From the IMG/VR virus record IMGVR_UViG_3300020220_000207, positions 1-31,943 of that record: a DNA stretch of 31,943 bases, one strand, 5' to 3'. The position numbers were made by a program, and so were the translations under genes. A model generated the notes under the pieces. The model was not told the origin of the DNA. It did no database searches and was given only the letters and a program-made list of their open reading frames with translations. This DNA comes from a virus (taxonomy: Duplodnaviria; Caudoviricetes). Shown piece by piece: positions 1,760 to 28,894 of the stretch (positions within the stretch are counted from its first letter, which is position 1; every line of letters begins with the position of its first letter).

Positions 1760-1940
1760 CCTCTTCTTCCTTATACCGTTTGGCAAGGTCTATTACCTCC
1801 GCTTGTGCGAGGCGCAGACCTCGAAGCACTCCGCACAACTCTTTATATTCCACAAAATCTTTTGTTCCGTCCAGCACCACAGCTATGAAGGAATTCATAT
1901 GCTCTGTTATTTTTTTGTCAAGCATGTCAAACGCTGTCAT
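1752..1940 (-). CDS. Small hypothetical phage protein
   Basis: 62 aa, overlaps both neighbours in coupled fashion; DFVEYKELCGVLRGL. Confidence 0.7.
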   Translation of the reverse strand: MTAFDMLDKKITEHMNSFIAVVLDGTKDFVEYKELCGVLRGLRLAQAEVIDLAKRYKEEEDE

Positions 1941-3046
1941 TTAAACTCTCCCTCTCTGATCCATTTTGTAGCCACCCACTTTACCGATTTTGGAGGAGTA
2001 CCCGCGTGTAACGACTCCCGCTCCTGAGCCGGATATCTGAATAACAAAGCATGCCCACGTATCGCCGGTACGCGGATTTTTAATTCGGGAAATTCTGTCG
2101 CCCCTTCTACCGGGGTGTTAAGATATAACAGCATCGTTGCCACACGCTGCCCGCCATTTTGTGTGGCCTTAACAACCTGGGTGTCTTTGTCAAAAAAGAA
2201 ATCGTGGTGCGGCTCATATTCCTGCCCCGGTTCGTATTTAAGAATTTGCAAATCTTCCCCATTTTGTACGGGCGTATTCGTAAATTGCGCTATTTTGTTT
2301 TCCAACTTTTTTATTAATAATGTAGACTGCCTTTTAAGGAATGTCTGCTGGCTTGTTCGGCCTTTGTGGTCTTTTGATGCGCCGGTATCATAATCAATAA
2401 CGGTGGATGGCACCAACTGTGGCGCGGCCATGTTAATTAACTCTTGGCATTCTTCCGGGGTAATAAAGTCTTTATATACTTCTATCTCTATTTGATTTTT
2501 GTATTCAAATATCTTTTTCTTTGAAAACGTCCAGTGAAAGAACAAATAGATTGCTCGTTGTTTTTCGCCGCACAACAACTCGTCTCGCCAGTGAGGAAAT
2601 CTTCGTCCCTCGACCACGGCCCCATAACCTACGCCAATATGCGCCTGCACATGGATGTCTTTGAAATTTCGTTCGTTAAAATCCCATGTCTCGCCCGTAA
2701 ACTCTTGTGTTGATACCTTAAGCGGCCACTCTAAATTATTTTTGTCTTCAAGGCATACTGATAAACTTACGTCTAAACCCTTTCTGTCGGTGTGTATTTT
2801 TAATACACTGTGCCGTTGATAGCACCTTGTGTAAGTGTTTGCAAATATCAAATCATCATATCTGGTGAGCAGTGACTGTGCGCGGTCTATATATTTTAAT
2901 GAGCCTGGTTGATTTTGAAACCCATAGCTGTTTTTATAAAACTCCGGAGATTGATTTTCATCAAAATGCCGGAGTGTAAAAAATTCTTGTACAAGCTCCT
3001 CGCATTCTTGCGGCGTAAAAAATTTAAGGTCACTATGATAGATCAT
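1937..3046 (-). CDS. Tandem 2OG-Fe(II) oxygenase: N-terminal phage-type domain plus C-terminal prolyl 4-hydroxylase alpha-like domain
   Basis: Domain 1: LKIHTDR...PHWR. Domain 2: RTS, EDLQILKY..GQEYEPHHDFF, QRVATMLLYLN, LHAG.P...KWVATKW. Confidence 0.85.
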   Translation of the reverse strand: MIYHSDLKFFTPQECEELVQEFFTLRHFDENQSPEFYKNSYGFQNQPGSLKYIDRAQSLLTRYDDLIFANTYTRCYQRHSVLKIHTDRKGLDVSLSVCLEDKNNLEWPLKVSTQEFTGETWDFNERNFKDIHVQAHIGVGYGAVVEGRRFPHWRDELLCGEKQRAIYLFFHWTFSKKKIFEYKNQIEIEVYKDFITPEECQELINMAAPQLVPSTVIDYDTGASKDHKGRTSQQTFLKRQSTLLIKKLENKIAQFTNTPVQNGEDLQILKYEPGQEYEPHHDFFFDKDTQVVKATQNGGQRVATMLLYLNTPVEGATEFPELKIRVPAIRGHALLFRYPAQERESLHAGTPPKSVKWVATKWIREGEFK

Positions 3047-11964: not shown

Positions 11965-13421
11965 TTGCGCCCCCTCAAATACAACATGAGCCGATGCCTG
12001 ATAAATTTCTCGACCTCTGCCGTTGGAGGCTTTGATACGTTTCTCAAATTCCTAGGCCATACTCCAAACTTTTCTTTGAATGTATGCGCCGCACGACCCT
12101 CCCTCCATCCCGCAAATTCCACCTTATACCAAAGCTGAGACCACCAGTCTTGCTTGTTTGCCGTGTTCGATGCACCAATCTCTACAAGCCTCCCAGGCTC
12201 AGCTTCAACCTTGTTCTTGCGCTCCCGAACATGCCCACAATGTGAACATACGTCCGAATTCGGAGGCCACAATGCATTGCATTTCGGGCACTTTGACTTC
12301 TCCTTGGCAACCTTGTCAATCTCTTTTCTGGGCTTTTCTTTCTCATCCGAAAGCGCCAATACCCCGTCATTAAATACCTCGTCCCATTGATCCCGGAATC
12401 TAAGATAGTTTCCTGAATGATCCAGCCATAATGCGTCACCTTTCCCATCACAACCCCTCATCACCCTCCCCATTTGCTGAATGTGGGATGATAATGATTT
12501 GGCAAACGGCCTTGCAGATACGCCGATACGAACATCCGGCACATCAAAACCTTTTGTCAGAATATCCGTTGCAATTAATCCGTGAATCGTTGTGTCCGGC
12601 CTGCTAAAATCCTTGATAATGTCTCTCTTGAATTGATCATCATCAAGATAGGATATGGACACAAAGTTATAACCGTGCTCTGCAAACTTTCTGGAGATGT
12701 CTGTGCCGTGAGCTACGCCAGCACAAAACACAATGGTCTTTTCCGGCTTGTTATAAATCTCATGCGTCTTGGCAATCCACTCCTGAACAATGTCTCCCGT
12801 AATTTTCATTCCGCGCTTTTCAATCTCGTCTGTAGACCACTCTCCGGCGACCTTCTTTGCGCCCTCCATATCAATCTCGGTGGATACAAACACCCTGAGC
12901 GGCACCAGTATGCTCTGATTCACCAGTTCTTTTGTCGTTGTTATTGAGACAACATTCTGATAAATGTCAGACAGCCCCTTTGTGAATGGGGTGGCGGTAA
13001 GACCCACTACCTTGATATTTTGGTTGTTTTTGATAAAGTCCTTGGTTTGTTTACGAGCGACATGACACTCGTCTACAATCAAAAGATTCAATCCCGGGAA
13101 CGATCCCCGGGCTTCCAAGGTCTGCGCAGAACAAACCTGGATGGGTTCGCTCGGCCTGTAGCGCCTATGCTTTGACTGTAAAACCCCGTGGTCGATGTTG
13201 TATCGATCCAACCGCTGACTGGTCTGATCGCATAAAATAATCCGATCCAAAACCATCGCAGCACGGCTTCCTTTGGTTTTGGCCGCATGGAGCAGAGCGA
13301 TTGCCATCTCGGTTTTGCCTGCCCCAGTGGGGGCGTAAAGGATCTGCGCTCTCTTGCCCTGCGCAAACCCCTTTCTCAGCGCGTCAAGAGTCTCCTCTTG
13401 ATACGGCCTTAAATGAAGCAT
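11961..13421 (-). CDS. SF2 DExH helicase with C-terminal Zn finger
   Basis: APTGAGKT, DECH, TAT, GFDVP, QQMGRVMR, CPKC...CSHC. Confidence 0.92.
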   Translation of the reverse strand: MLHLRPYQEETLDALRKGFAQGKRAQILYAPTGAGKTEMAIALLHAAKTKGSRAAMVLDRIILCDQTSQRLDRYNIDHGVLQSKHRRYRPSEPIQVCSAQTLEARGSFPGLNLLIVDECHVARKQTKDFIKNNQNIKVVGLTATPFTKGLSDIYQNVVSITTTKELVNQSILVPLRVFVSTEIDMEGAKKVAGEWSTDEIEKRGMKITGDIVQEWIAKTHEIYNKPEKTIVFCAGVAHGTDISRKFAEHGYNFVSISYLDDDQFKRDIIKDFSRPDTTIHGLIATDILTKGFDVPDVRIGVSARPFAKSLSSHIQQMGRVMRGCDGKGDALWLDHSGNYLRFRDQWDEVFNDGVLALSDEKEKPRKEIDKVAKEKSKCPKCNALWPPNSDVCSHCGHVRERKNKVEAEPGRLVEIGASNTANKQDWWSQLWYKVEFAGWREGRAAHTFKEKFGVWPRNLRNVSKPPTAEVEKFIRHRLMLYLRGRK

Positions 13422-14152
13422 TACTTCCTCCTAATCTGTCGTTTCAATTGAGCATTCTCATCCTGAAATTGATCGCGGCTCAGCCTCAGCGCTTCGTTCT
13501 CAATCTTCAACAAACGAATCTCCTCCCGAAGCTGACGAATTATCGTTTCTGCGTCTACACCCTCAGGAAACTCCAGCTTTGAAGTCGCCAACTGCGTCTT
13601 CAACTCTTCGTTCTCTTGGTGCAAAACATTGATTACATCGTGCTTGATGTCGTCTTCGACCTCCTCCTTGTTCACCTTCATTGTGGTAACTTTACCACTC
13701 TTGTGTTGGAATTTTTTCACAACCTTGGTCTGCTTTTGCTCTTTTCGCAATTTTGCAACAAAGGGGTGCGAGACATGGCACAGCCGTGCGATCTCCGCAT
13801 CCGACCAGTCACTCCACTCTACGTCCTCCAACATGATGAACACGCTGTTACGTTTGTCGTCGTTGGTTCGCCGCAGACCATGAAGTGCGTTGGCCCCAAG
13901 CGAGTGGAGCACCGCATCCCGAAGCGTCCCCGACACGACTTCCGCAACAATTTCCTTTCTTTTCGCACGCTTATGTGCAAAGTAACGGTGGAAACCATCT
14001 GCAAGATAGTTTTTTATGCCATCAAAGTATACAATGATCGGCGGGAAACATGCGCCCTGCAAAATCGCCTCCGCATAGTCCGCAACCGTCTCTTCGTTGA
14101 TCCTGGACCGACTTTGCGTTCCCCCATCAATGGTGATCTGATCAATGTTCAT
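13421..14152 (-). CDS. ParB/Srx N-terminal domain protein with HTH and coiled-coil
   Basis: TQSR..INEETVADYA, PPIIV, LADGFHR; WSDAEIARLCHVSHPFVAKLR HTH. Confidence 0.8.
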   Translation of the reverse strand: MNIDQITIDGGTQSRSRINEETVADYAEAILQGACFPPIIVYFDGIKNYLADGFHRYFAHKRAKRKEIVAEVVSGTLRDAVLHSLGANALHGLRRTNDDKRNSVFIMLEDVEWSDWSDAEIARLCHVSHPFVAKLRKEQKQTKVVKKFQHKSGKVTTMKVNKEEVEDDIKHDVINVLHQENEELKTQLATSKLEFPEGVDAETIIRQLREEIRLLKIENEALRLSRDQFQDENAQLKRQIRRK

Positions 14153-14456: not shown

Positions 14457-14732
14457 ATGGAATCAGCTCAAGAATTGTTGAATCGTTTGCACTTCAAGGG
14501 GTGGAAGAATGCGACCATCTCCTCCACTGCGCGAATCACCATCCCAACCCTTATCAAGATTGTGAAGGGAGGCGATTGCAGGTTTTCAACCTACACTAAA
14601 CTCAAGGAACTTGAAGACCAAGATCCCCCGGTTCGCACAAAACGCCTCACCGCGAACGCGGCCCTGAAACAAATCCTCAACGCACTAACGCTTGAAGAAG
14701 CTCAGCAAGTCGCTCGCGCCGCCCTTAAGTGA
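14457..14732 (+). CDS. Putative Cro/XRE-like HTH regulator
   Basis: AAGGA SD; GWKNATISSTARITIPTLIKIVKG..CRFSTYTKL resembles a Cro-type HTH; next to divergent promoters. Confidence 0.5.
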   Translation: MESAQELLNRLHFKGWKNATISSTARITIPTLIKIVKGGDCRFSTYTKLKELEDQDPPVRTKRLTANAALKQILNALTLEEAQQVARAALK

Positions 14733-14739
14733 CACAAAA

Positions 14740-14757
14740 CCCTCGCTCCGGCGAGGG
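14740..14757 (+). other. GC-rich UNCG hairpin upstream of the Tas gene
   Basis: CCCTCGC-TCCG-GCGAGGG, 7-bp perfect stem, no U-tract. Confidence 0.55.
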
Positions 14758-14779: not shown

Positions 14780-15586
14780 ATGGAATCTAACATGGAATCG
14801 TTGCAAAAACTAACCAAAGACTTAAAGTTGGCGGCCAAAACACTCACCGCTCGCGAAGTCCGGTTTCTGGTTGACTACTACTATATCGCACAAGAGGATC
14901 GCAAACGTGGAGGCAATCAGGTTCGCGCTCTCACAAAAACCGGAGAGCCTAGCAGCGTCATCGGCTGGCTGACTCTCCAAACCTCTACGCTCGAAGAAGA
15001 AATACGGAAAGCGCTTAACGCATACACACAATCTCATATCATGGGAGGCTGGGCACGGGAGGTCTATGGGATCGGTCCTGTCATTTCTGCCGGATTGCTG
15101 GCACACATCAACATCGAAAAAGCCCCCACGGTTGGGCACATCTGGCGCTTTGCGGGTTTGGACCCTACGACCTCTTGGCGCAAAGGTGAGATACGCCCGT
15201 GGAATGCTCGCCTCAAGTCTTTATGCTGGAAAATTGGGCAGTCTTTCATGAAATTTTCCAACCGGGATGACTGTTTTTATGGACACGTTTACAAACAAAG
15301 AAAAGAATACGAGGTTTCACGAAATGAATCTGGTGCCAATCGCGAGCTTGCAATTTCTATTGCAGAATCCGGGAGGTTTGGAAAAACCACCGATGCATAC
15401 AAGTCTTACTCATCGGGATTGCTGCCTCCTGCACAACTTGATGCCCGTGCCCGACGTTACGCTGTAAAGCTTTTCCTCTCCCACCTGCATGGAGAGTGGT
15501 ATCAGCGGCATTTCAATACCCCGCCTCCGTTGCCTTACGCGATTGCGCATTTGAATCACGCCCACTTTATTCCTCCGCCTCATTAA
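14780..15586 (+). CDS. tasA: TIGR-associated Nop-domain (IS110 Transposase_20-like) protein, TasA type, no evident nuclease domain
   Basis: Helical N-terminus, VYGIGPVISAGLLAHI, IWRFAGLDP, WNARLK, ARRYAVKLFLSHL match the IS110/Nop RNA-binding fold; no DEDD RuvC, no HNH; array starts at its stop codon. Confidence 0.85.
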   Translation: MESNMESLQKLTKDLKLAAKTLTAREVRFLVDYYYIAQEDRKRGGNQVRALTKTGEPSSVIGWLTLQTSTLEEEIRKALNAYTQSHIMGGWAREVYGIGPVISAGLLAHINIEKAPTVGHIWRFAGLDPTTSWRKGEIRPWNARLKSLCWKIGQSFMKFSNRDDCFYGHVYKQRKEYEVSRNESGANRELAISIAESGRFGKTTDAYKSYSSGLLPPAQLDARARRYAVKLFLSHLHGEWYQRHFNTPPPLPYAIAHLNHAHFIPPPH

Positions 15587-16769
15587 AACATCAGATAGGA
15601 GAGCGCCATATCCCCAGATTGAAACAGTGCTATGGAGCGCACCACAAACAGAGATTGAAACACTGTTACCGAGAGCACCACAGAGCAGGATTGAGACAAC
15701 GACAACGAGAGCACCAATCGGCCAGATTGAAACAACGACCACGAGAGCACCAATGGTCGAGATTGAAACACTTAACGGGAGAGCACCAACGCATTAGATT
15801 GAAACAGTTATCGGGAGAGCACCACTCAAGCAGATTGAAACAAGTGCTGAGAGAGCACCACTTTGTTGGATTGAAACATCAGCCAAGAGAGTTCCAAAGC
15901 TTTAGATTGAAACAAGAGCACCATATATGGCGTTTGAAACAAAACGCCCGAGAGCACCAGATCGAAAGATCGAAACACCGTTAGGGAGAGCACCACTCCA
16001 GCAGATTGAAACACGATCCACGAGAGCACCACTCAAGCAGATTGAAACACGCTCCACGAGCGTACCATATAGACAGATTGAAACACAGCGCATGAGAGCA
16101 CCATTCGAAAAGATTGAAACAATAAAACCGAGAGCACCATTTGAGCGGATTGAAACAGCTCCGAAGAGAACACCACTTTTGAAGATTGAAACCTCCACGG
16201 CGAGAGTACCAAGTTCAACGATTGAAACACTCTCGGTGAGAGAACCAAGCTGATCGATTGAAACACTGAAACCGAGAGCACCATTGGCGATGATTGAAAC
16301 AATTGATCGGAGAGCACCACGTCTTGAGATTGAAACACCATAAAAGAGAGCACCAGAGCAAAAGATTGAAACACCATCTCCAAGAGTACCAGTGACCAAG
16401 ATTGAAACACACGCTCAGAGCGCCCCATACATGTAGATTGAAACGCCTGCCTTGAGAACACCAAGCTGAAGGATTGAAACACGCGAACTGAGAGCACCAA
16501 TCGTCCAGATTGAAACACCCGGCAAGAGAGCACCACTTGATGAGATTGAAACACTTGACGGTAGAGCACCACGCCCGCAGATTGAAACAGTTCCATGGAG
16601 AGCACCACGCCCTTAGATTGAAACATTGGCCGATAGAGCACCAGCCGGACAGATTGAAACCGGATATACGAGAAAACCATGCGCGATGATTGAAACGATG
16701 CCGTTGAGAGAACCATGATCCTAGATTGAAACAGCCCCAGAGAGAGAACCATCACCCTAGATTGAAACA
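15581..16769 (+). ncRNA. TIGR-like dual-repeat guide-RNA array: 33 units plus a terminal repeat, 36-nt period
   Basis: GATTGAAAC recurs every 36 nt (15617, 15653, 15689 ... 16760; 30 of 34 copies exact), alternating with GAGAGCACCA (17 of 33 exact, terminal CCA invariant) and two variable ~8-nt segments; one 27-nt unit at 15905. Confidence 0.9.
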
Positions 16770-16829
16770 ACCAGGCTATTAGGATCGCATTACCGTCCCT
16801 AAATCGATGTTTAATAATCCATTTAAGCT

Positions 16830-17111
16830 ATGAACCCCATGAAACTAAATGAAGCACAGGAAAGGACGATGCAACCTGTGCTCATACTTGAAGGCATCAT
16901 GTATCTACCACACTACGTACAAGTTAATCGGTGGTGTGGCCCCGGTACAAAAATTAGTCCGTGGGGTAGTCCCGAGGATACAATACCTTTCACTACAGAA
17001 AATCTTATTGGCCGAGGGGCTGTGTGGGGGTCTTACCCACTTTGGCCCCGCAGATGGACGGAACTGTTATTGAATGCGCCACCTTTTACGGAGAAAACTG
17101 GAGAGGAATAA
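16830..17111 (+). CDS. Hypothetical protein
   Basis: 93-aa ORF after the array; start uncertain (possibly MQPVL after AAAGGA). Confidence 0.55.
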   Translation: MNPMKLNEAQERTMQPVLILEGIMYLPHYVQVNRWCGPGTKISPWGSPEDTIPFTTENLIGRGAVWGSYPLWPRRWTELLLNAPPFTEKTGEE

Positions 17112-17122
17112 GCGAAACATGA

Positions 17123-17566
17123 TTGATAATGATGGAAATTACCCCAATTAATTTGGATGAAGCAAATGCTTTTGTGGCCATTCATCATCGGCATCACAAA
17201 CCCATGCCCGGTTGCAAATTCTGCGTGGCCGTATCCGAAGACAAAGTGGTTGGCGTTGCTATTGTTGGTCGGCCCGTAGCCCGATTGCTCGATGATGGTT
17301 GGACCCTTGAAGTCAATCGATGTTGTACTGATGGGACAAAGAATGCATGTTCAATGCTTTATTCTGCCGCATGGCGAGCTGCAAAAGCCTTGGGGTATCG
17401 GCGATTAATTACCTACACATTGCCTGGAGAAGGCGGCGCGTCTTTGCGAGCATCAAATTGGAAATGCATAGGATTGCGCGGGGGGGGCAATTGGAATACG
17501 ACATCGCGACCGAGGATTGATACCGATGCTTTATTGCGAGGTCAAAAACTTTTATGGGAAGCATAA
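17123..17566 (+). CDS. XF1762-family protein (GNAT/Mom-like fold)
   Basis: EANAFV..HHRHH, VGVAIVGRPVAR.LDDG.TLEV.R.CTDG, NACSMLY, LITYTL..E.GASLRA; exact start uncertain. Confidence 0.75.
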   Translation: MIMMEITPINLDEANAFVAIHHRHHKPMPGCKFCVAVSEDKVVGVAIVGRPVARLLDDGWTLEVNRCCTDGTKNACSMLYSAAWRAAKALGYRRLITYTLPGEGGASLRASNWKCIGLRGGGNWNTTSRPRIDTDALLRGQKLLWEA

Positions 17567-22540: not shown

Positions 22541-22798
22541 GTGAATAACAAATTAAACGACAAAGAGCGCAGACATTTATTGAATGTCAAGTCTTTGCCG
22601 TGTTCGGTATGCGACGCCTCGCCTCCGTCAGATGCCCACCATATAAAACAACATAAGCAATACTTGGTGGTAGCCTTATGCAAGGATTGCCACCAAGGTT
22701 CTTTAATGGGATGGCACGGTCAGAAACGTGCCTGGGCGATTCGCAAGATGGATGAACTGGATGCCTTGGCGATAACCTTGGAAAGATTATTTAAGTGA
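22541..22798 (+). CDS. Ref/DUF968-like HNH Zn-binding nuclease
   Basis: LPCSVC...DAHH...LCKDCH....GWHG. Confidence 0.7.
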   Translation: MNNKLNDKERRHLLNVKSLPCSVCDASPPSDAHHIKQHKQYLVVALCKDCHQGSLMGWHGQKRAWAIRKMDELDALAITLERLFK

Positions 22799-25700
22799 CT
22801 TGCGGACTTCTTCTGCCTGCTTTGCCAGTTCTCCGAGAATAATTTTCAACCTATCAATTTCTTCCCGCTTGTCAGCGCCTGACATTGTAGGGTCTGCAAC
22901 AACCACGCGAATGTACTTGCGAACATCGCTCATCTGCTCGGCAGTCTTTTGATAGAATTTAGCGAGCGCGATTTTGTCTCCCTTTTCCTCAATGATCTCT
23001 TCAACCTTTTGCGCATCCCCAATCGCGGCATAATGACGCATGTCTGCAAAAGCCTGGTTGATGGCTTTTCCATTTTCATAAAATGCCGTGACATATCTTG
23101 ACTGGGTAGAGGGAAGCTCTTTAATCATATTTAGCGAAGCCCGCTCCATCCACTTCGCATCCGGGAGTGTTGCTTCCTTGAATGGCATGACCGCATAATT
23201 GGAGATAACCCCTGCCGTGCCTCCCGCCCACCCAAGGAGAGCATTGATTAGATACTCTGCTTGTACGGGTGACAACTCGGTTTTTTCCCCGGGAAATAAA
23301 GATGTAATGCCTCCTATTGCTTTGGCAAGCTCACTAGTATTGTCGGCAATCCGTTCCTGTTTGGAGAGTCTTTCCAATCCAACTGATTCAATAGGAGCGC
23401 CGGTGAACGACGAGGTGTTGGCGTACAAATCGAAAAATGGTTTGATGACTTGTGGAAAGTTTATGGCAAAGGTTTGCGTAATCATCCGACCAAACATATC
23501 CGCGACTTCTTTTCCTTCTGCGCCTTCATCGTAGACTTGTCTCAAGACATGTTCGGTTACTGTCCCTAGCGCACCTAATTCAAACGGCTTGGGTATGCGG
23601 AACGCGGCCTCCATTCCCGGCAAACGAATCCACCAGAAGTTATCTCGATCCCACTCATCACGTTTCTTATATTCCTCATCGTCTTTGAAGGCATAAAACA
23701 ATGTAGCCGATGCAAGCATGACAGCCATTGCCACTTTGGCAAATCGCTCTCCCTGTTCGCGTTCGGTCCCTGTAGAGGGTTTGCCATCCTGATTATAAAA
23801 CAGCCTTGCGGTCGGGATAATCCCATCTCTTCCAAGTTTATAAAGCCCCTGCACCCGGGCATTTAAGAATGGTATGGTTTGTGTAAGGTAACGGAACGAC
23901 TCCCAGGAGCCGTGCATGGAGAAGTCCAACAGGTCTCTCGCCTGGTAACTTGCTTCTAAATGGCTCAAGCCTTTTTCCCGAAGTTGTTTGTACAAAGCAA
24001 GACGATTGGCATTTTCTGCCGCATTCCCAGCCTCCTGATATTTGTCCCAGATCTTACGCAGGCCTTTGGTAATTTTATCTTTGGTGTCAAGAATGTTGTC
24101 GGGATTAATGCCGTTGTCAATTAACCGTTTTATGAGTGGCGCGGTTTCGCCCTCATAATAGGTGCCAAAATTGAAAATCGCGCCACCAGCCATTGCCGAT
24201 ATATAATTATCCGCCTTCTTGTTGTATATGGAAATCCCTTCGATAGCGTTTGAGACGGGGTCTGCTTTTAATCCTGACAATGCTATAGATTGAATGCTGT
24301 CTCGCCAAAGATTATAAACTCTAAACTGCGGGCTGATGGTTACGCCCCACTGGAGTATGTTTTTCATTGTTTTGGCGATGCGCAGGAATGTGCTTTGTTT
24401 TCCCATATAGTCAAGCGCAACCATCGAATCAAACAGCAGCGGGTCATTTATTTTGAAGTATTGTTTTTGCCCGTCGATCATAGCTTTGATTGAGCCTGTA
24501 GGTTCTTTAGTAAGCTCAACAACCGGAACACCACCAATAGAAGCTTTGGATGCATCTTGAAGCGTGGTTACAAGCGCCTGGTTTTTCATCGAAGCCGACA
24601 GTATATGGCTCCAGTTTCTAAGCGTGTTTTCTACCAGATCTCCAAATTGCTTCTCCCCGCCCTTTAGCTTCTTGGAGAAATATTGATTTGATAAGCCTGA
24701 TGCTGTGGACGGGCCTTCTACGTCCTTACCTTCCATTTCCTTATAAAAAGGAACATAATAATTATCTTTGGAAAACTTTTCAAATGCTTCGTCATTAATT
24801 AAACCTGTATCCTTGGCTACAGTTAGCACCGACTTGTTCAGCGCATTCATATCTTTAAGAACGGCGTTATACACCTCTATTCTTGGCTTGCCATTCAATT
24901 CTCCAGCGCTAAGCATGGGGGCGTTTTGCATGATTGAACTTGGGATGGAGGCGTCCTTTCCTTGTTTAAGCAGTTCAAGTTCGCGATTGACGGCCACCCA
25001 TATCATGAAATTATCGACCTCGGTTCCAACCGGCTTTAGGGTCTCAATAAGTCCTTTGCCTTTTCTGATATTGAGCGCCCCTCCATCATTAAAGACCTCT
25101 CCATAAAACAACAAGCCTTCAAGACCTCCGTCGATGGCTGGTGACAGTCGCGCCTGCTTGTATCCACTTTCACTATATTCTTTTACTGTACGGAATTGAT
25201 CTGCAATGTTTTGTGCCAGTCTCTGCCAAAAATTATCTTTCAGTGCTTCGATCTTATCAATAATCGTTACATTTCCCGGTGCGAAATTATTTTTCAAATC
25301 TTTTTTGAATTCTTCCGATGTTTCCGGCGAAAGTTTTAATGGCTCTCGTTTCTGTAATGCTTGCTGCGCAGTGCCAATTATTTTGTCTTTCAATGATTCT
25401 TTTTGTTTTTCCTCGGCGCTTAATACAATATCTTTTGAGAAAATGGATGATGGTCTTGGTAGTTTCCCAAGAGATTCTGTAAGACTTAATACTTGGGTAA
25501 GAACGGTTTTATTTTGAATACCAAGCAGATTGGCCACAAGTTCTACAAATTGCGACCACACACTCTTGTTTCTTGCATATGGAATATTGGCTATAAGAAG
25601 CTGGAATTCCGGGTTTGATAAAGCTTCCGTGACAAACTCAAACCCTTTTTCAAACGGATCTGTTGCGGTATCAAACGCATACCATTTTCTACCCGACTGA

Positions 25701-28700
25701 GGATCAATGAGTTTTCCGCGTTTCCGTAATTCTTTTTCTGTGTAATCTCTAAGAGTTTTTATTTGTTCTACAAACTTTTTGGATTTTGCGTCGGGTTGTA
25801 TTTGTTGTTTTACTACAAGCGCGTGAACCATTTCATGTATGGTTATTTGCTCGTTATCTATATAAGACAAATCCATCGTAATAGTATCATATCGTACAGA
25901 ATATTCCACAGCGTTTCTTCTAAGTTTTTTTGGTTTTACCAGTTTAATTTGCTTTCTATATGGCTCAAGCAATTCTGCGACTCTTTGATATACTGGATTG
26001 GGATGTTTTTTAAAGTAATCTAAAACGCCGCCAAAGTTTCTTGCAAGGTGTAATTTTGCCAATTCCGGGGATCTTTTTGTCGGAAGAACGTTTAACAGTC
26101 CGGCTAAGTCTGTGACCTTTCCGGTTGGAGGCGGAGGAGGCGGCGGGGGAGGCGGAGGAGGCGGCGGAGGAGGTGGAGTAGGCGTTCCAGTTTTGTTAAC
26201 TTTTTTAAGCGCATTTTGAATGAACGCTCTTGGTATCTTGTTTTGTTTGTACGCGTCAAGGAAGGCCTTTGTCTTTTCGTACTGCGATTTTTCTTCGTTT
26301 GTTGTAAGGCTTTTCGGATCAACTTTTGTGCGATCCGTTAGAAGGCGGATGTAGTAATCTACCGGATCAACGTTTGTATTGTTAACAAACTGAAGCGACG
26401 GTAGTTCTATTTTGCTTGTCGGTTCTACTTGTCCAGAAGCAACATTCCACGTTTTGGTTTCCAACTTGACTGGCGGAAACGGTGAAAACGGTCCTTCTGC
26501 GGGTAGCGGCACAACTCCGATATTACGCACAGGTTTTTCAAAGACATCTTTAACGCCTTCAAGCGTAGGTCCAGCTATAGGCTGTTGAGATATCTTTGCC
26601 CCAGGCGATCCAAGGAACGTTAAAGGCGGCAGGTTCAACAGTTGACGTTCAGTCTGTAACGCACGTTCGACATCCTCTCTTGTGATGCGCCCTGCGTCCC
26701 AGTCTCTGACAAAACGCTGTGCCGCTGGTGTATTGGTTTCGCGTGCAATCTTTACATACGCCTCTACCGGATCGATGACTACAGGTGTCTCTGGCGTACC
26801 AAATGCCGTAGCTTGAATTTCTTTCGATAGTTTAAACGGCAAGTCAAAAGACTTGATGGCAAATTTGTTTTTTGCCGATGGATGCGGAACGACGTGCAAA
26901 CTATTTGGATCGCCGCCCTGACGCCTGAGAAGATCTTTTAATATGAGGAGCCGATTGTTCGCATCCTTTTCTGACATTGGTCTTGGATCGACAAGTTTCG
27001 GTCTTGGGGAAACTGTAGGTATTGCAGGTTCTGCGATTGTTGAGGTTCGTTTAGCTTTCCTTGCTTCTTCGAGTCGTTGTTTTAAATCTTCCCGATCTTG
27101 CGGAGTAAGAGATTGGCTTTGGAGTTTTCTAACAATCTCCAATTCTTGTTGTTCCGATTGCTTTCTTAACTCGGGCGTCATGACAGACAACCCAGAGGCT
27201 TTTCTCTGTTCTTCTATCTTTGCTTGTTTTTCTGCAACATCCAATGTTGGGGCGGGGAGTTTTTGTGCAAGCGGGCCTTCACGTTTTGCTTGTGGGGCGA
27301 TTTCACCTTCTGCCGTTGGGCGGGGCGGTCCTTGCCGTGGTTGCGGTTTTGGTTGTGCCGCTAATTCTACAAGTCTTTTCTTTAGGTAATTAATTCTTTC
27401 CTTGGTGGTTTGTGAGTTGGGTAGTTTTGATAATTCTAATTCTCGGATAATTTCTACCATTTCTGAAGATGCGGCCCGTGGTCCTCCCGGAGGTTTTTCG
27501 GGAGCGGTTTTCTTCAGTTGCGCGATTTCCTCTAATCTTTGATTTAGACTGGTTCGCTCTTCTGTTGTAAGCGGTATATCTGTACCGGGCTTATTTGCTA
27601 GTTCGATCCGTTTGCGGATATTGGCTTCTTCTTCTTCCAGTCTTTGTAGTACGGGTATGTTTTGGGCTTGTAAATTTTCTCTTGCGGTTTTTTGTTTTTG
27701 TTCTGCTTCTTGTGAAATGCGCTCCCGTTCTGCGGTATCTTCTCCAAGGGGAGTAACTTCTACACGAGGAGAGGGTCCAAACTCTGGCAACGTAGCTCTT
27801 GCTTCTCCTGGCTGGAGGGGTGAAGGCGGCGGAGGAGGGGCCGGGGGCGGCGGCGGTAGAGGTTCAGGGGGTGGGGGAGGAGGGGGCGGAGGTGGTGGAT
27901 ATTCGGTGGGTCGCCTAATGAGACCTGAAATGCCTCCGAGTCCTGCACCTCCAATAGCCGCCATGCCAGCGGTCTCGCCAAGACCTTCTGTGAGCCTTTG
28001 CTCGGGCTTAACCTCCCGCATAGCAAGGTTTTGCGAAAACCGTCCTCCTGTTTCTTCAGCGATCTCCGAGGCGGATTCCCCAAGCGCTCCTCGACCTACG
28101 CGCAACGCCCGACCCTGAATGCTGGGAACGCCCGCAAAGGCCTCTTCTAAGGCTTTGGCACCCGGCAATCTCTGAGCAAGTAGGGAGATGACTGCTCCAG
28201 ACGCTCCCGCAGCACGGGCCAAATTCAAGGCTCCCTCGGCGGCCTCTCTGTCTGAAGCACCTTTAGACTTAAGTTCTGCATAGATGTTTTCGTATGCACC
28301 AGCACCTACGTCTGCACCTTGCTGTACGGCTGCGGCACCAATAGCCCCACGTACACCAGCTTGTGCTGCGGCCTCCGCCCCACGAGCCGCCGTCGCAACT
28401 TTGGCAATCTTTGCCGCGCCAAAAGGTACAAGTAATTGAGGAGCCTGCTCTGCAAGAAAATTTAACAACAGGCCGGGATCTTTGACTGTCTCCCCAAGAG
28501 CCGTTTTGAACGCACCAAACTCTCCCTGTTTTGCCGTGGCTTCTTCAATCGCCTGTCGTCTGGCTTGCTCACGCGCAATCAGGCCGGGGGACTTCAGTGT
28601 TTCTGCATATTCCGAAATGTCTTTACCAAGACCCAAAGTGCCCGTACGACGCATGTCTCCCGTCGCAAGCCCATACAATTGACCTGGAAGCTGTACTAAC

Positions 28701-28894
28701 GAACCAATACCACCGACTACACCAGCACCAATGTCTTGAAGCGCCTCGCCATATGTGCGCTCTTTAGACGGTGGTTGTTGCGGTGCAGGAGCCTGTAACG
28801 ACCTAATGTAATTAGCTAGTTTCCTTGCGCTTTCAGTATCACCAGCAGCATCCGCACGACGCAGTGCGTCATATAGGTCGTTCATATTTGCCAT
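22787..28894 (-). CDS. Large polyvalent, probably internal virion/ejection protein with HExxH motif and LPD38-like C-terminus
   Basis: 2035 aa; Gly/Ala-rich N-terminal region, poly-Pro linkers, TIHEMVH...FEFVTEALSNPEF, C-terminal IPFLNARVQG...RIPKPFELG. Confidence 0.75.
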   Translation of the reverse strand: MANMNDLYDALRRADAAGDTESARKLANYIRSLQAPAPQQPPSKERTYGEALQDIGAGVVGGIGSLVQLPGQLYGLATGDMRRTGTLGLGKDISEYAETLKSPGLIAREQARRQAIEEATAKQGEFGAFKTALGETVKDPGLLLNFLAEQAPQLLVPFGAAKIAKVATAARGAEAAAQAGVRGAIGAAAVQQGADVGAGAYENIYAELKSKGASDREAAEGALNLARAAGASGAVISLLAQRLPGAKALEEAFAGVPSIQGRALRVGRGALGESASEIAEETGGRFSQNLAMREVKPEQRLTEGLGETAGMAAIGGAGLGGISGLIRRPTEYPPPPPPPPPPPEPLPPPPPAPPPPPSPLQPGEARATLPEFGPSPRVEVTPLGEDTAERERISQEAEQKQKTARENLQAQNIPVLQRLEEEEANIRKRIELANKPGTDIPLTTEERTSLNQRLEEIAQLKKTAPEKPPGGPRAASSEMVEIIRELELSKLPNSQTTKERINYLKKRLVELAAQPKPQPRQGPPRPTAEGEIAPQAKREGPLAQKLPAPTLDVAEKQAKIEEQRKASGLSVMTPELRKQSEQQELEIVRKLQSQSLTPQDREDLKQRLEEARKAKRTSTIAEPAIPTVSPRPKLVDPRPMSEKDANNRLLILKDLLRRQGGDPNSLHVVPHPSAKNKFAIKSFDLPFKLSKEIQATAFGTPETPVVIDPVEAYVKIARETNTPAAQRFVRDWDAGRITREDVERALQTERQLLNLPPLTFLGSPGAKISQQPIAGPTLEGVKDVFEKPVRNIGVVPLPAEGPFSPFPPVKLETKTWNVASGQVEPTSKIELPSLQFVNNTNVDPVDYYIRLLTDRTKVDPKSLTTNEEKSQYEKTKAFLDAYKQNKIPRAFIQNALKKVNKTGTPTPPPPPPPPPPPPPPPPPTGKVTDLAGLLNVLPTKRSPELAKLHLARNFGGVLDYFKKHPNPVYQRVAELLEPYRKQIKLVKPKKLRRNAVEYSVRYDTITMDLSYIDNEQITIHEMVHALVVKQQIQPDAKSKKFVEQIKTLRDYTEKELRKRGKLIDPQSGRKWYAFDTATDPFEKGFEFVTEALSNPEFQLLIANIPYARNKSVWSQFVELVANLLGIQNKTVLTQVLSLTESLGKLPRPSSIFSKDIVLSAEEKQKESLKDKIIGTAQQALQKREPLKLSPETSEEFKKDLKNNFAPGNVTIIDKIEALKDNFWQRLAQNIADQFRTVKEYSESGYKQARLSPAIDGGLEGLLFYGEVFNDGGALNIRKGKGLIETLKPVGTEVDNFMIWVAVNRELELLKQGKDASIPSSIMQNAPMLSAGELNGKPRIEVYNAVLKDMNALNKSVLTVAKDTGLINDEAFEKFSKDNYYVPFYKEMEGKDVEGPSTASGLSNQYFSKKLKGGEKQFGDLVENTLRNWSHILSASMKNQALVTTLQDASKASIGGVPVVELTKEPTGSIKAMIDGQKQYFKINDPLLFDSMVALDYMGKQSTFLRIAKTMKNILQWGVTISPQFRVYNLWRDSIQSIALSGLKADPVSNAIEGISIYNKKADNYISAMAGGAIFNFGTYYEGETAPLIKRLIDNGINPDNILDTKDKITKGLRKIWDKYQEAGNAAENANRLALYKQLREKGLSHLEASYQARDLLDFSMHGSWESFRYLTQTIPFLNARVQGLYKLGRDGIIPTARLFYNQDGKPSTGTEREQGERFAKVAMAVMLASATLFYAFKDDEEYKKRDEWDRDNFWWIRLPGMEAAFRIPKPFELGALGTVTEHVLRQVYDEGAEGKEVADMFGRMITQTFAINFPQVIKPFFDLYANTSSFTGAPIESVGLERLSKQERIADNTSELAKAIGGITSLFPGEKTELSPVQAEYLINALLGWAGGTAGVISNYAVMPFKEATLPDAKWMERASLNMIKELPSTQSRYVTAFYENGKAINQAFADMRHYAAIGDAQKVEEIIEEKGDKIALAKFYQKTAEQMSDVRKYIRVVVADPTMSGADKREEIDRLKIILGELAKQAEEVRKSLK

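Follow-up and report, generated by a model that had tools for sequence, protein, structure and literature searches.

The window analysed here is the whole stretch of 31,943 nucleotides from a tailed phage, which contains a gene for a 268-aa protein, tasA, followed by a tandem array of short units. Judged from the letters of the gene and the array, the locus is a TIGR-TasA system of the dual-repeat class, and neither a TasH or TasR nuclease nor an IS110 transposon. The coordinates of the cassette and of the features around it are summarized in Table 1.

Table 1. Features of the tasA gene, the TIGR array and their surroundings in the window.
Feature	Positions	Strand	Description
ParB-like gene	13421..14152	-	phrog_1033, E 2e-18; divergent from tasA
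91-aa ORF	14457..14732	+	upstream of tasA; structural neighbours mostly HTH, atlas feature scores under 0.9
7-bp G+C hairpin	14740..14757	.	between upstream ORF and tasA; terminator-like on minus strand
tasA	14780..15586	+	268 aa; coiled coil and Nop domain (by homology), no N-terminal nuclease
W150 to K158 codons	15227..15253	+	equivalent to SpTasH W203/K211, DNA unwinding junction
Y253 to H260 codons	15536..15559	+	equivalent to SpTasH Y289/H296, pre-tigRNA processing pair
dual-repeat TIGR array	15581..16769	+	anchor recurrence, column information, motif copies
27-nt unit	15905..15931	+	lacks spacer A and one base after spacer A; also in L002
extra-unit site	15968..16039	+	in L002/L057 and L058, spacer A (16004 unit) joined to spacer B (15968 unit)

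To characterize TasA, we compared it with solved structures. With the single sequence, the PDB search returned SpTasH (E 5e-10) and TaTasR (E 1.6e-9), and the matches below E 0.001 were Tas proteins only (2 of 4 listed). With a profile built from 78 of the 120 listed homologues, the E-values reached 4e-16 for SpTasH and 1e-12 for TaTasR, while the same profile matched IS110 enzymes at 1.5e-4 and 1.5e-3 and covered only positions 33-131. The Tas structures outrank the IS110 transposases by 8-12 orders of magnitude in the profile search. By these matches, from which its fold is deduced, TasA belongs to the Nop-domain Tas family. The motifs GIGP and WRFAGLDP, on which the earlier note had relied, are both present in its reading frame. 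It turned out that about 65 N-terminal residues of SpTasH, which bear the HNH domain, have no counterpart in TasA (26% identity in the alignment), and neither alignment nor Pfam nor PHROG revealed a RuvC, HNH or other nuclease family in the protein; the description as nuclease-less therefore stands. The residues equivalent to the functional pairs of SpTasH are well kept among the 78 aligned sequences: W and K each occupy the positions of W150 and K158 in 77 of them, H is found at the position of H260 in all 78, and the position of Y253 holds Y in 68 and F in 10.

The array on the plus strand contains 33 units and closes with a complete terminal edge repeat (16760-16769). The unit starts run from 15581 to 16724 at 36-nt steps, with a single 27-nt step at 15905, so the strict 36-nt period claimed for the array holds in 32 of 33 units and fails in one. 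Each full unit has a 10/8/10/8 layout, in which an edge repeat of 10 nt, spacer A of 8 nt, a loop repeat of 10 nt and spacer B of 8 nt follow each other. Over the 32 full units, the conserved columns are 1-10 (GATTGAAACA) and 19-28 (GAGAGCACCA) with 0.9-2.0 bits, while both 8-nt variable segments carry at most 0.3 bits, column 36 excepted (0.81 bits; A in 24 of 32 units). Exact copies of GATTGAAAC occur 30 times in the window and those of GAGAGCACCA 17 times, all of them inside the array. Anchors and column bits thus bear out 33 units built from two alternating repeats and two variable segments, except that the first repeat measures 10 nt and not 9 as first described. The first edge repeat (CATTAAAACA, 15581-15590) is degenerate and includes the TAA stop of tasA, which agrees with the reported start of the array in the stop-codon region of the 268-aa gene.

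The 27-nt unit is likely a dead guide. The base 3' of each 8-nt spacer is mostly G, and because of this base and of the short unit, which lacks exactly 9 nt, a 9+9 reading of the guides is also possible. A hairpin and terminator scan found no terminator 3' of the array, an Rfam search of the array gave no match, and the promoter scan gave 5 sites against 2.8 +/- 1.6 in shuffles. Since the layout equals that of the SpTasH tigRNA, which is 5+8+10+8+5 nt in Table S3 of Faure 2025 (PMC12045711), the guides are predicted to be 36 nt long, to be released by cuts at the centre of the edge repeat and to recognise 16 bp. As a separate observation, spacer A of the 16220 unit (16230-16237) is perfectly complementary, in reverse, to a junction of spacer and loop repeat that occurs at three places in the array; chance alone would produce about one match of this kind, and the partner spacer finds no matching sequence there.

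Parsing of the window and 164 loci, redundant ones included, yielded arrays of this layout next to the gene in 118 of these 165 sources. Among 1,069 distinct units, the two edge-repeat pairs are standard in 1,050 and 1,063 units respectively with several pair types, counts that are biased upward by the repeat library used in the parser, and the loop pair is G-C in 915. Across the arrays, G-C, A-U and U-A occur at one edge pair and C-G and U-A at the other, and these two inner edge-repeat pairs covary. Within the limits of these library-biased counts, both repeats show pairing of the Box C/D type together with an extra covarying edge pair. Among 102 array consensuses, U-A at both edge pairs is found only in the four copies of the phage in the window. 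Besides, more distant Tas relatives (L030, L041, L042, L045-L054, L035) have periods of 37, 38 or 34 nt. A second TasA with 66% identity (L097:92-1330) is preceded by an array of 31 or more units, many of them repeated or re-paired within it. A 72-nt period is seen in distal units of L004, L007 and L013, where successive units carry one or the other of two edge-repeat forms in turn; the pattern looks like a duplication of blocks of two units.

The locus resembles several described systems. Like the dual-repeat TIGR-TasA systems of the FpTasA type described in Faure 2025 (PMC12045711), it combines a solo Nop-domain protein with a downstream array of 36-nt units, but it has 33-34 units where 5-15 are usual, variable segments of 8 nt where FpTIGR has 9, and a full terminal edge repeat with no detected terminator. 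With SpTIGR-TasH of Salicola phage CGphi29 (PDB 21KL, 9W03, 9W04), it shares the 10/8/10/8 layout, a similar loop repeat, the W/K unwinding pair and the Y/H processing pair, while the HNH domain of that system is absent here, and the two U-A edge pairs stand in place of the G-C and C-G of SpTIGR and most relatives. MbTasA (Xu 2026, 10.64898/2026.09.09.750476) and PlTasA (Guan 2026, 10.64898/2026.08.11.744272) are likewise nuclease-free Tas proteins, and they bind DNA under guide control. The guide of PlTasA is a stem-loop and MbTasA appears in a stem-loop figure, whereas the array here is dual-repeat; the stem-loop clades lack the Y/H pair, which TasA here contains. The RNA-binding domain with the GIGP motif is common to TasA and the IS110 bridge recombinases (IS621, ISCro4), but there is no DEDD recombinase domain here and a guide array replaces the one bridge RNA.

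The system is already known, since the TasA protein is catalogued and is an ordinary example of the family described in 2025. In the accessible part of Table S1 of Faure 2025 (PMC12045711), its N-terminus opens at least 13 rows, of which, compared by eye, 12 are identical to TasA and 1 differs in one residue; all 13 belong to cluster node35190node, an id carried by at least 565 rows of that part. Together with the PDB matches to SpTasH and TaTasR and the SpTIGR layout, this presence in the table confirms the earlier identification as TIGR-TasA. The Tas family has 6,685 annotated arrays, and the annotations accompanying Xu 2026 (supplements, TIGRSafari) may already include the present one. The locus adds little as a system, with the family, the nuclease-free class, repression and the TasA protein itself all in print. 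Its use lies in serving as a test case for two questions, which targets TIGR guides have and how new guides enter the arrays; Faure 2025 (PMC12045711) and Xu 2026 (10.64898/2026.09.09.750476) call both targets and spacer acquisition open.

The phage encodes in the window a portal protein, a large terminase, a helicase, a primase, a ParB-like protein, an exonuclease, Erf, SSB, a Mom-like protein and an LPD38 protein. Its terminase shares 52-57% identity with the terminases of Pelagibacter phages HTVC027P and HTVC023P, phage 023Pt_psg01 and DSL-LC04, and all 21 listed runs containing the stretch are lake-water metagenomes from 2018 and 2025. A longer contig of the same phage, G001, has 46.5 kb and is about 75% complete. 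To see how widely the cassette is distributed, we looked for tas in related phages: among loci that carry the helicase gene and extend 4.5 kb or more upstream it was found in 1 of 43, that one being the same phage; it was found in none of 15 related records (7 of them at least 90% complete), and not in the complete G002, whose terminase is 81% identical to that of the phage in the window, with G001 as positive control. TIGR-TasA is an accessory cassette with a patchy distribution among relatives.

The ORF upstream of tasA is possibly a Cro-like helix-turn-helix regulator, which we regard as a lead only; its longer reading (from 14382) had no match in Pfam or PHROG. The hairpin between this ORF and tasA has a z of -2.0 and is a consensus match only. 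Immediately 3' of the array, at 16785-17140, the stretch is entered and left by contigs of much greater depth, and this short ORF region, common to other, more abundant elements, may mark the right edge of the cassette. Other genes in the window include a Mom-like gene for DNA modification, located 3' of the array (17123-17566; phrog_1384, E 1.5e-41), one for a virion-type protein of 2,035 aa that contains an LPD38 domain and repeats rich in proline (22787-28894, minus strand) and a 2OG-Fe(II) oxygenase gene that adjoins the portal gene (1937-3046, minus strand).

As for the function, we consider it probable that the transcript of this phage-borne TIGR-TasA cassette is cut into about 32 guides of 36 nt, with which TasA would likely bind to foreign DNA and keep it from being transcribed. 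We ascribe processing, binding and repression to TasA because they are known for FpTasA, SpTasH and MbTasA. The array would be co-transcribed with tasA, Y253 and H260 would cut the transcript in the middle of the edge repeat to give the 36-nt guides, and each TasA dimer would take one guide. Spacers A and B would pair with opposite DNA strands over 8+8 bp, as do those of SpTasH, for which Guan 2026 (10.64898/2026.08.11.744272) gives 8-bp heteroduplexes. The DNA site would read spacer A and then the reverse complement of spacer B, which is the order of the TaTasR target in Table S3 of Faure 2025 (PMC12045711). The bound complex would block RNA polymerase, and the array appears to renew itself as units are duplicated, halves are paired anew and point mutations arise. 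DNA binding that leaves the DNA uncut, and repression, both suggested in the earlier note, are published for other Tas proteins. Repression by MbTasA in E. coli is given in Xu 2026 (10.64898/2026.09.09.750476) in a figure on stem-loop systems, and Guan 2026 (10.64898/2026.08.11.744272) reports that nuclease-dead dual-repeat SpTasH represses transcription.

To find the targets, we searched the phage itself, the array and several Mb of related phage DNA, a range within which the power to find targets is low. In the published gapless geometry, 0 of 32 guides matched the window at up to 2 mismatches, and with both orders and gaps of 0-3 the window matches stayed at chance level. The search of 38 kb of G001 also gave no gapless match at up to 2 mismatches and stayed at chance level. 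Within the own array, none of the 32 guides of the window had a target at up to 2 mismatches, and none of 1,128 guides from 67 arrays had one at up to 1 mismatch. When 962 pooled guides were compared with 3.1 Mb of DNA, there were 1 exact and 54 one-mismatch matches against 1.2 and 57 for shuffled pairs (100 shuffles). The largest excesses in this search occurred in wrong-order geometries (3 exact against 0.7; 71 against 56), which indicates the noise level of the search. The guides of the window showed no clear excess on 111 related-phage loci (8+8, gaps -1 to 2), and one predicted 16-nt site searched over all viral contigs gave 75 matches in 60 contexts, inseparable from background. Matches of guides to tas genes were not above chance (3 against 2.1 expected). 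The three guides concerned come from the arrays of L148, L098/L099 and L160/L163, and each differs by one mismatch from a tas gene of another element. Guide variants have no codon periodicity, so nothing here shows that they track coding targets. The earlier note was right that the letters alone do not disclose the targets, and these searches yielded none above shuffled controls.

Two apparent signals were tried and rejected. With 450 guides on 0.9 Mb in the published geometry, 13 matches were obtained against 6.7 (maximum 10 in 10 shuffles), but the excess came partly from mis-phased units and vanished in the 962-guide search. A post-hoc 9+9 model gave 6 against 1.6 on related phages (p 0.006), as one of about 20 tests, and 5 against 1.6 on G002 at 3 mismatches (p 0.02); the excess was not seen for 482 sister guides (22 against 22.7) nor for 459 other guides, and a retest fixed beforehand on 167 new loci (1.93 Mb) gave 3 against 2.7.

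Given that no guide fits the phage's own DNA, the targets are most likely competing, co-infecting mobile elements or genes of the host, and not the phage itself. The first alternative is that the protein and the repeats are functional while most guides have no current target, the array drifting by slippage and mutation as a random repertoire that selection samples only occasionally. The absence of target enrichment in any set searched, changes over all spacer positions without a codon period, spacers that are alike within a class and the persistence of the 27-nt dead unit are in line with such drift. Repeat pairing and spacing are strictly kept, however, some guides are common to 10-13 sister-group arrays, and the searches were low-powered, so we hold this to be unlikely, if still worth keeping in mind.

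Somewhat less probable still is that the TasA complex serves as an RNA-guided architectural or recombination aid, bending DNA or recruiting the ParB-like protein or Erf recombinase without repression. Such a role was proposed for TasA in general in Faure 2025 (PMC12045711), and ParB-like, Erf-like and exonuclease genes are located within 6 kb of the cassette. But scans of 36 and 28 window proteins turned up no integrase, and the window and 38 kb of G001 gave no self-targets. The ParB-like gene, moreover, is divergent, is carried by most related phage loci that have no tas and is near only 3 of 99 long tas loci; being divergent and common in tas-less relatives, it does not represent the operonic ParB link of tas noted in Faure 2025. 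It is part of the replication block of the phage and lies outside the TIGR cassette.

We give very little credit to the idea of self-regulation, in which the guides would act on genes of the phage or on the array; the cassette does sit at the divergence of two gene blocks, next to the HTH-like ORF, but the lack of matches in the window and in the own arrays speaks against it, within a genome of which about three quarters is covered (G001). That tasA is a truncated IS110 transposase next to an unrelated tandem repeat is refuted for practical purposes. In its favour are a weak PF02371 match (19.3 bits, under the cut-off of 21.3) and the 'transposase' label of its PHROG family; against it stand the lack of a Pfam match to an N-terminal DEDD catalytic domain, the far higher scores of Tas structures, the presence of the protein in the Tas table and the same-layout arrays beside most homologues.

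Returning to the guide cassette that we favour, we compared arrays to see how its guides might be renewed. Copies of the array in other assemblies differ in duplicated, moved and re-paired units, with hardly any change in the gene. Duplication, re-pairing and mutation of units are seen in these arrays, and we infer that they may be the main source of new guides. Our tentative proposal, which we regard as somewhat less than an even bet, is that guides are renewed without an acquisition enzyme and several times faster than tas changes, by out-of-register duplication of 36 nt (which re-joins A and B), by copying and moving of units and by point mutation. If true, this would answer how TIGR arrays gain guides, and the array would be a combinatorial diversity generator and not a record of infections. 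We found no paper on TIGR array turnover in a literature search that was thin on subscription journals. The 21 lake runs with array variants make read-level array genotypes and same-sample target searches feasible.

Two other assemblies of the same phage (L002/L057, which are one contig, and L058) contain 34 units. At the site of the extra unit, a short contig with about twice the flanking depth was found in run X13, and the window may have lost (collapsed) one unit in assembly. Spacers of the same class in the array resemble each other more often than expected, with 7 close A-A pairs against 3.0 (p 0.03) and 12 close B-B pairs against 4.0 (p 0.0002), and there is no excess for A-B pairs across the classes (5 against 4.9). 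Among the 457 distinct guides of 43 sister arrays, the partners are 1-2 bases apart for 45 A and 39 B spacers and unrelated for 5 A and 18 B spacers, where chance would give about 2 identities.

A variant array was present in two 2025 runs of one study, including X21. In X21, the gene and its upstream DNA have 11 other letters in 916 nt, and the array side has 77 other letters in 1,198 nt (three pieces, mostly array), with units skipped and re-ordered; these data are contigs of repeats from two runs of one study, which possibly represent a different strain and not change over time. At 15833-15868, X21 reads like the 15617 unit. In pieces from the two 2018 runs, the array differs from the window by 0-1 letters.
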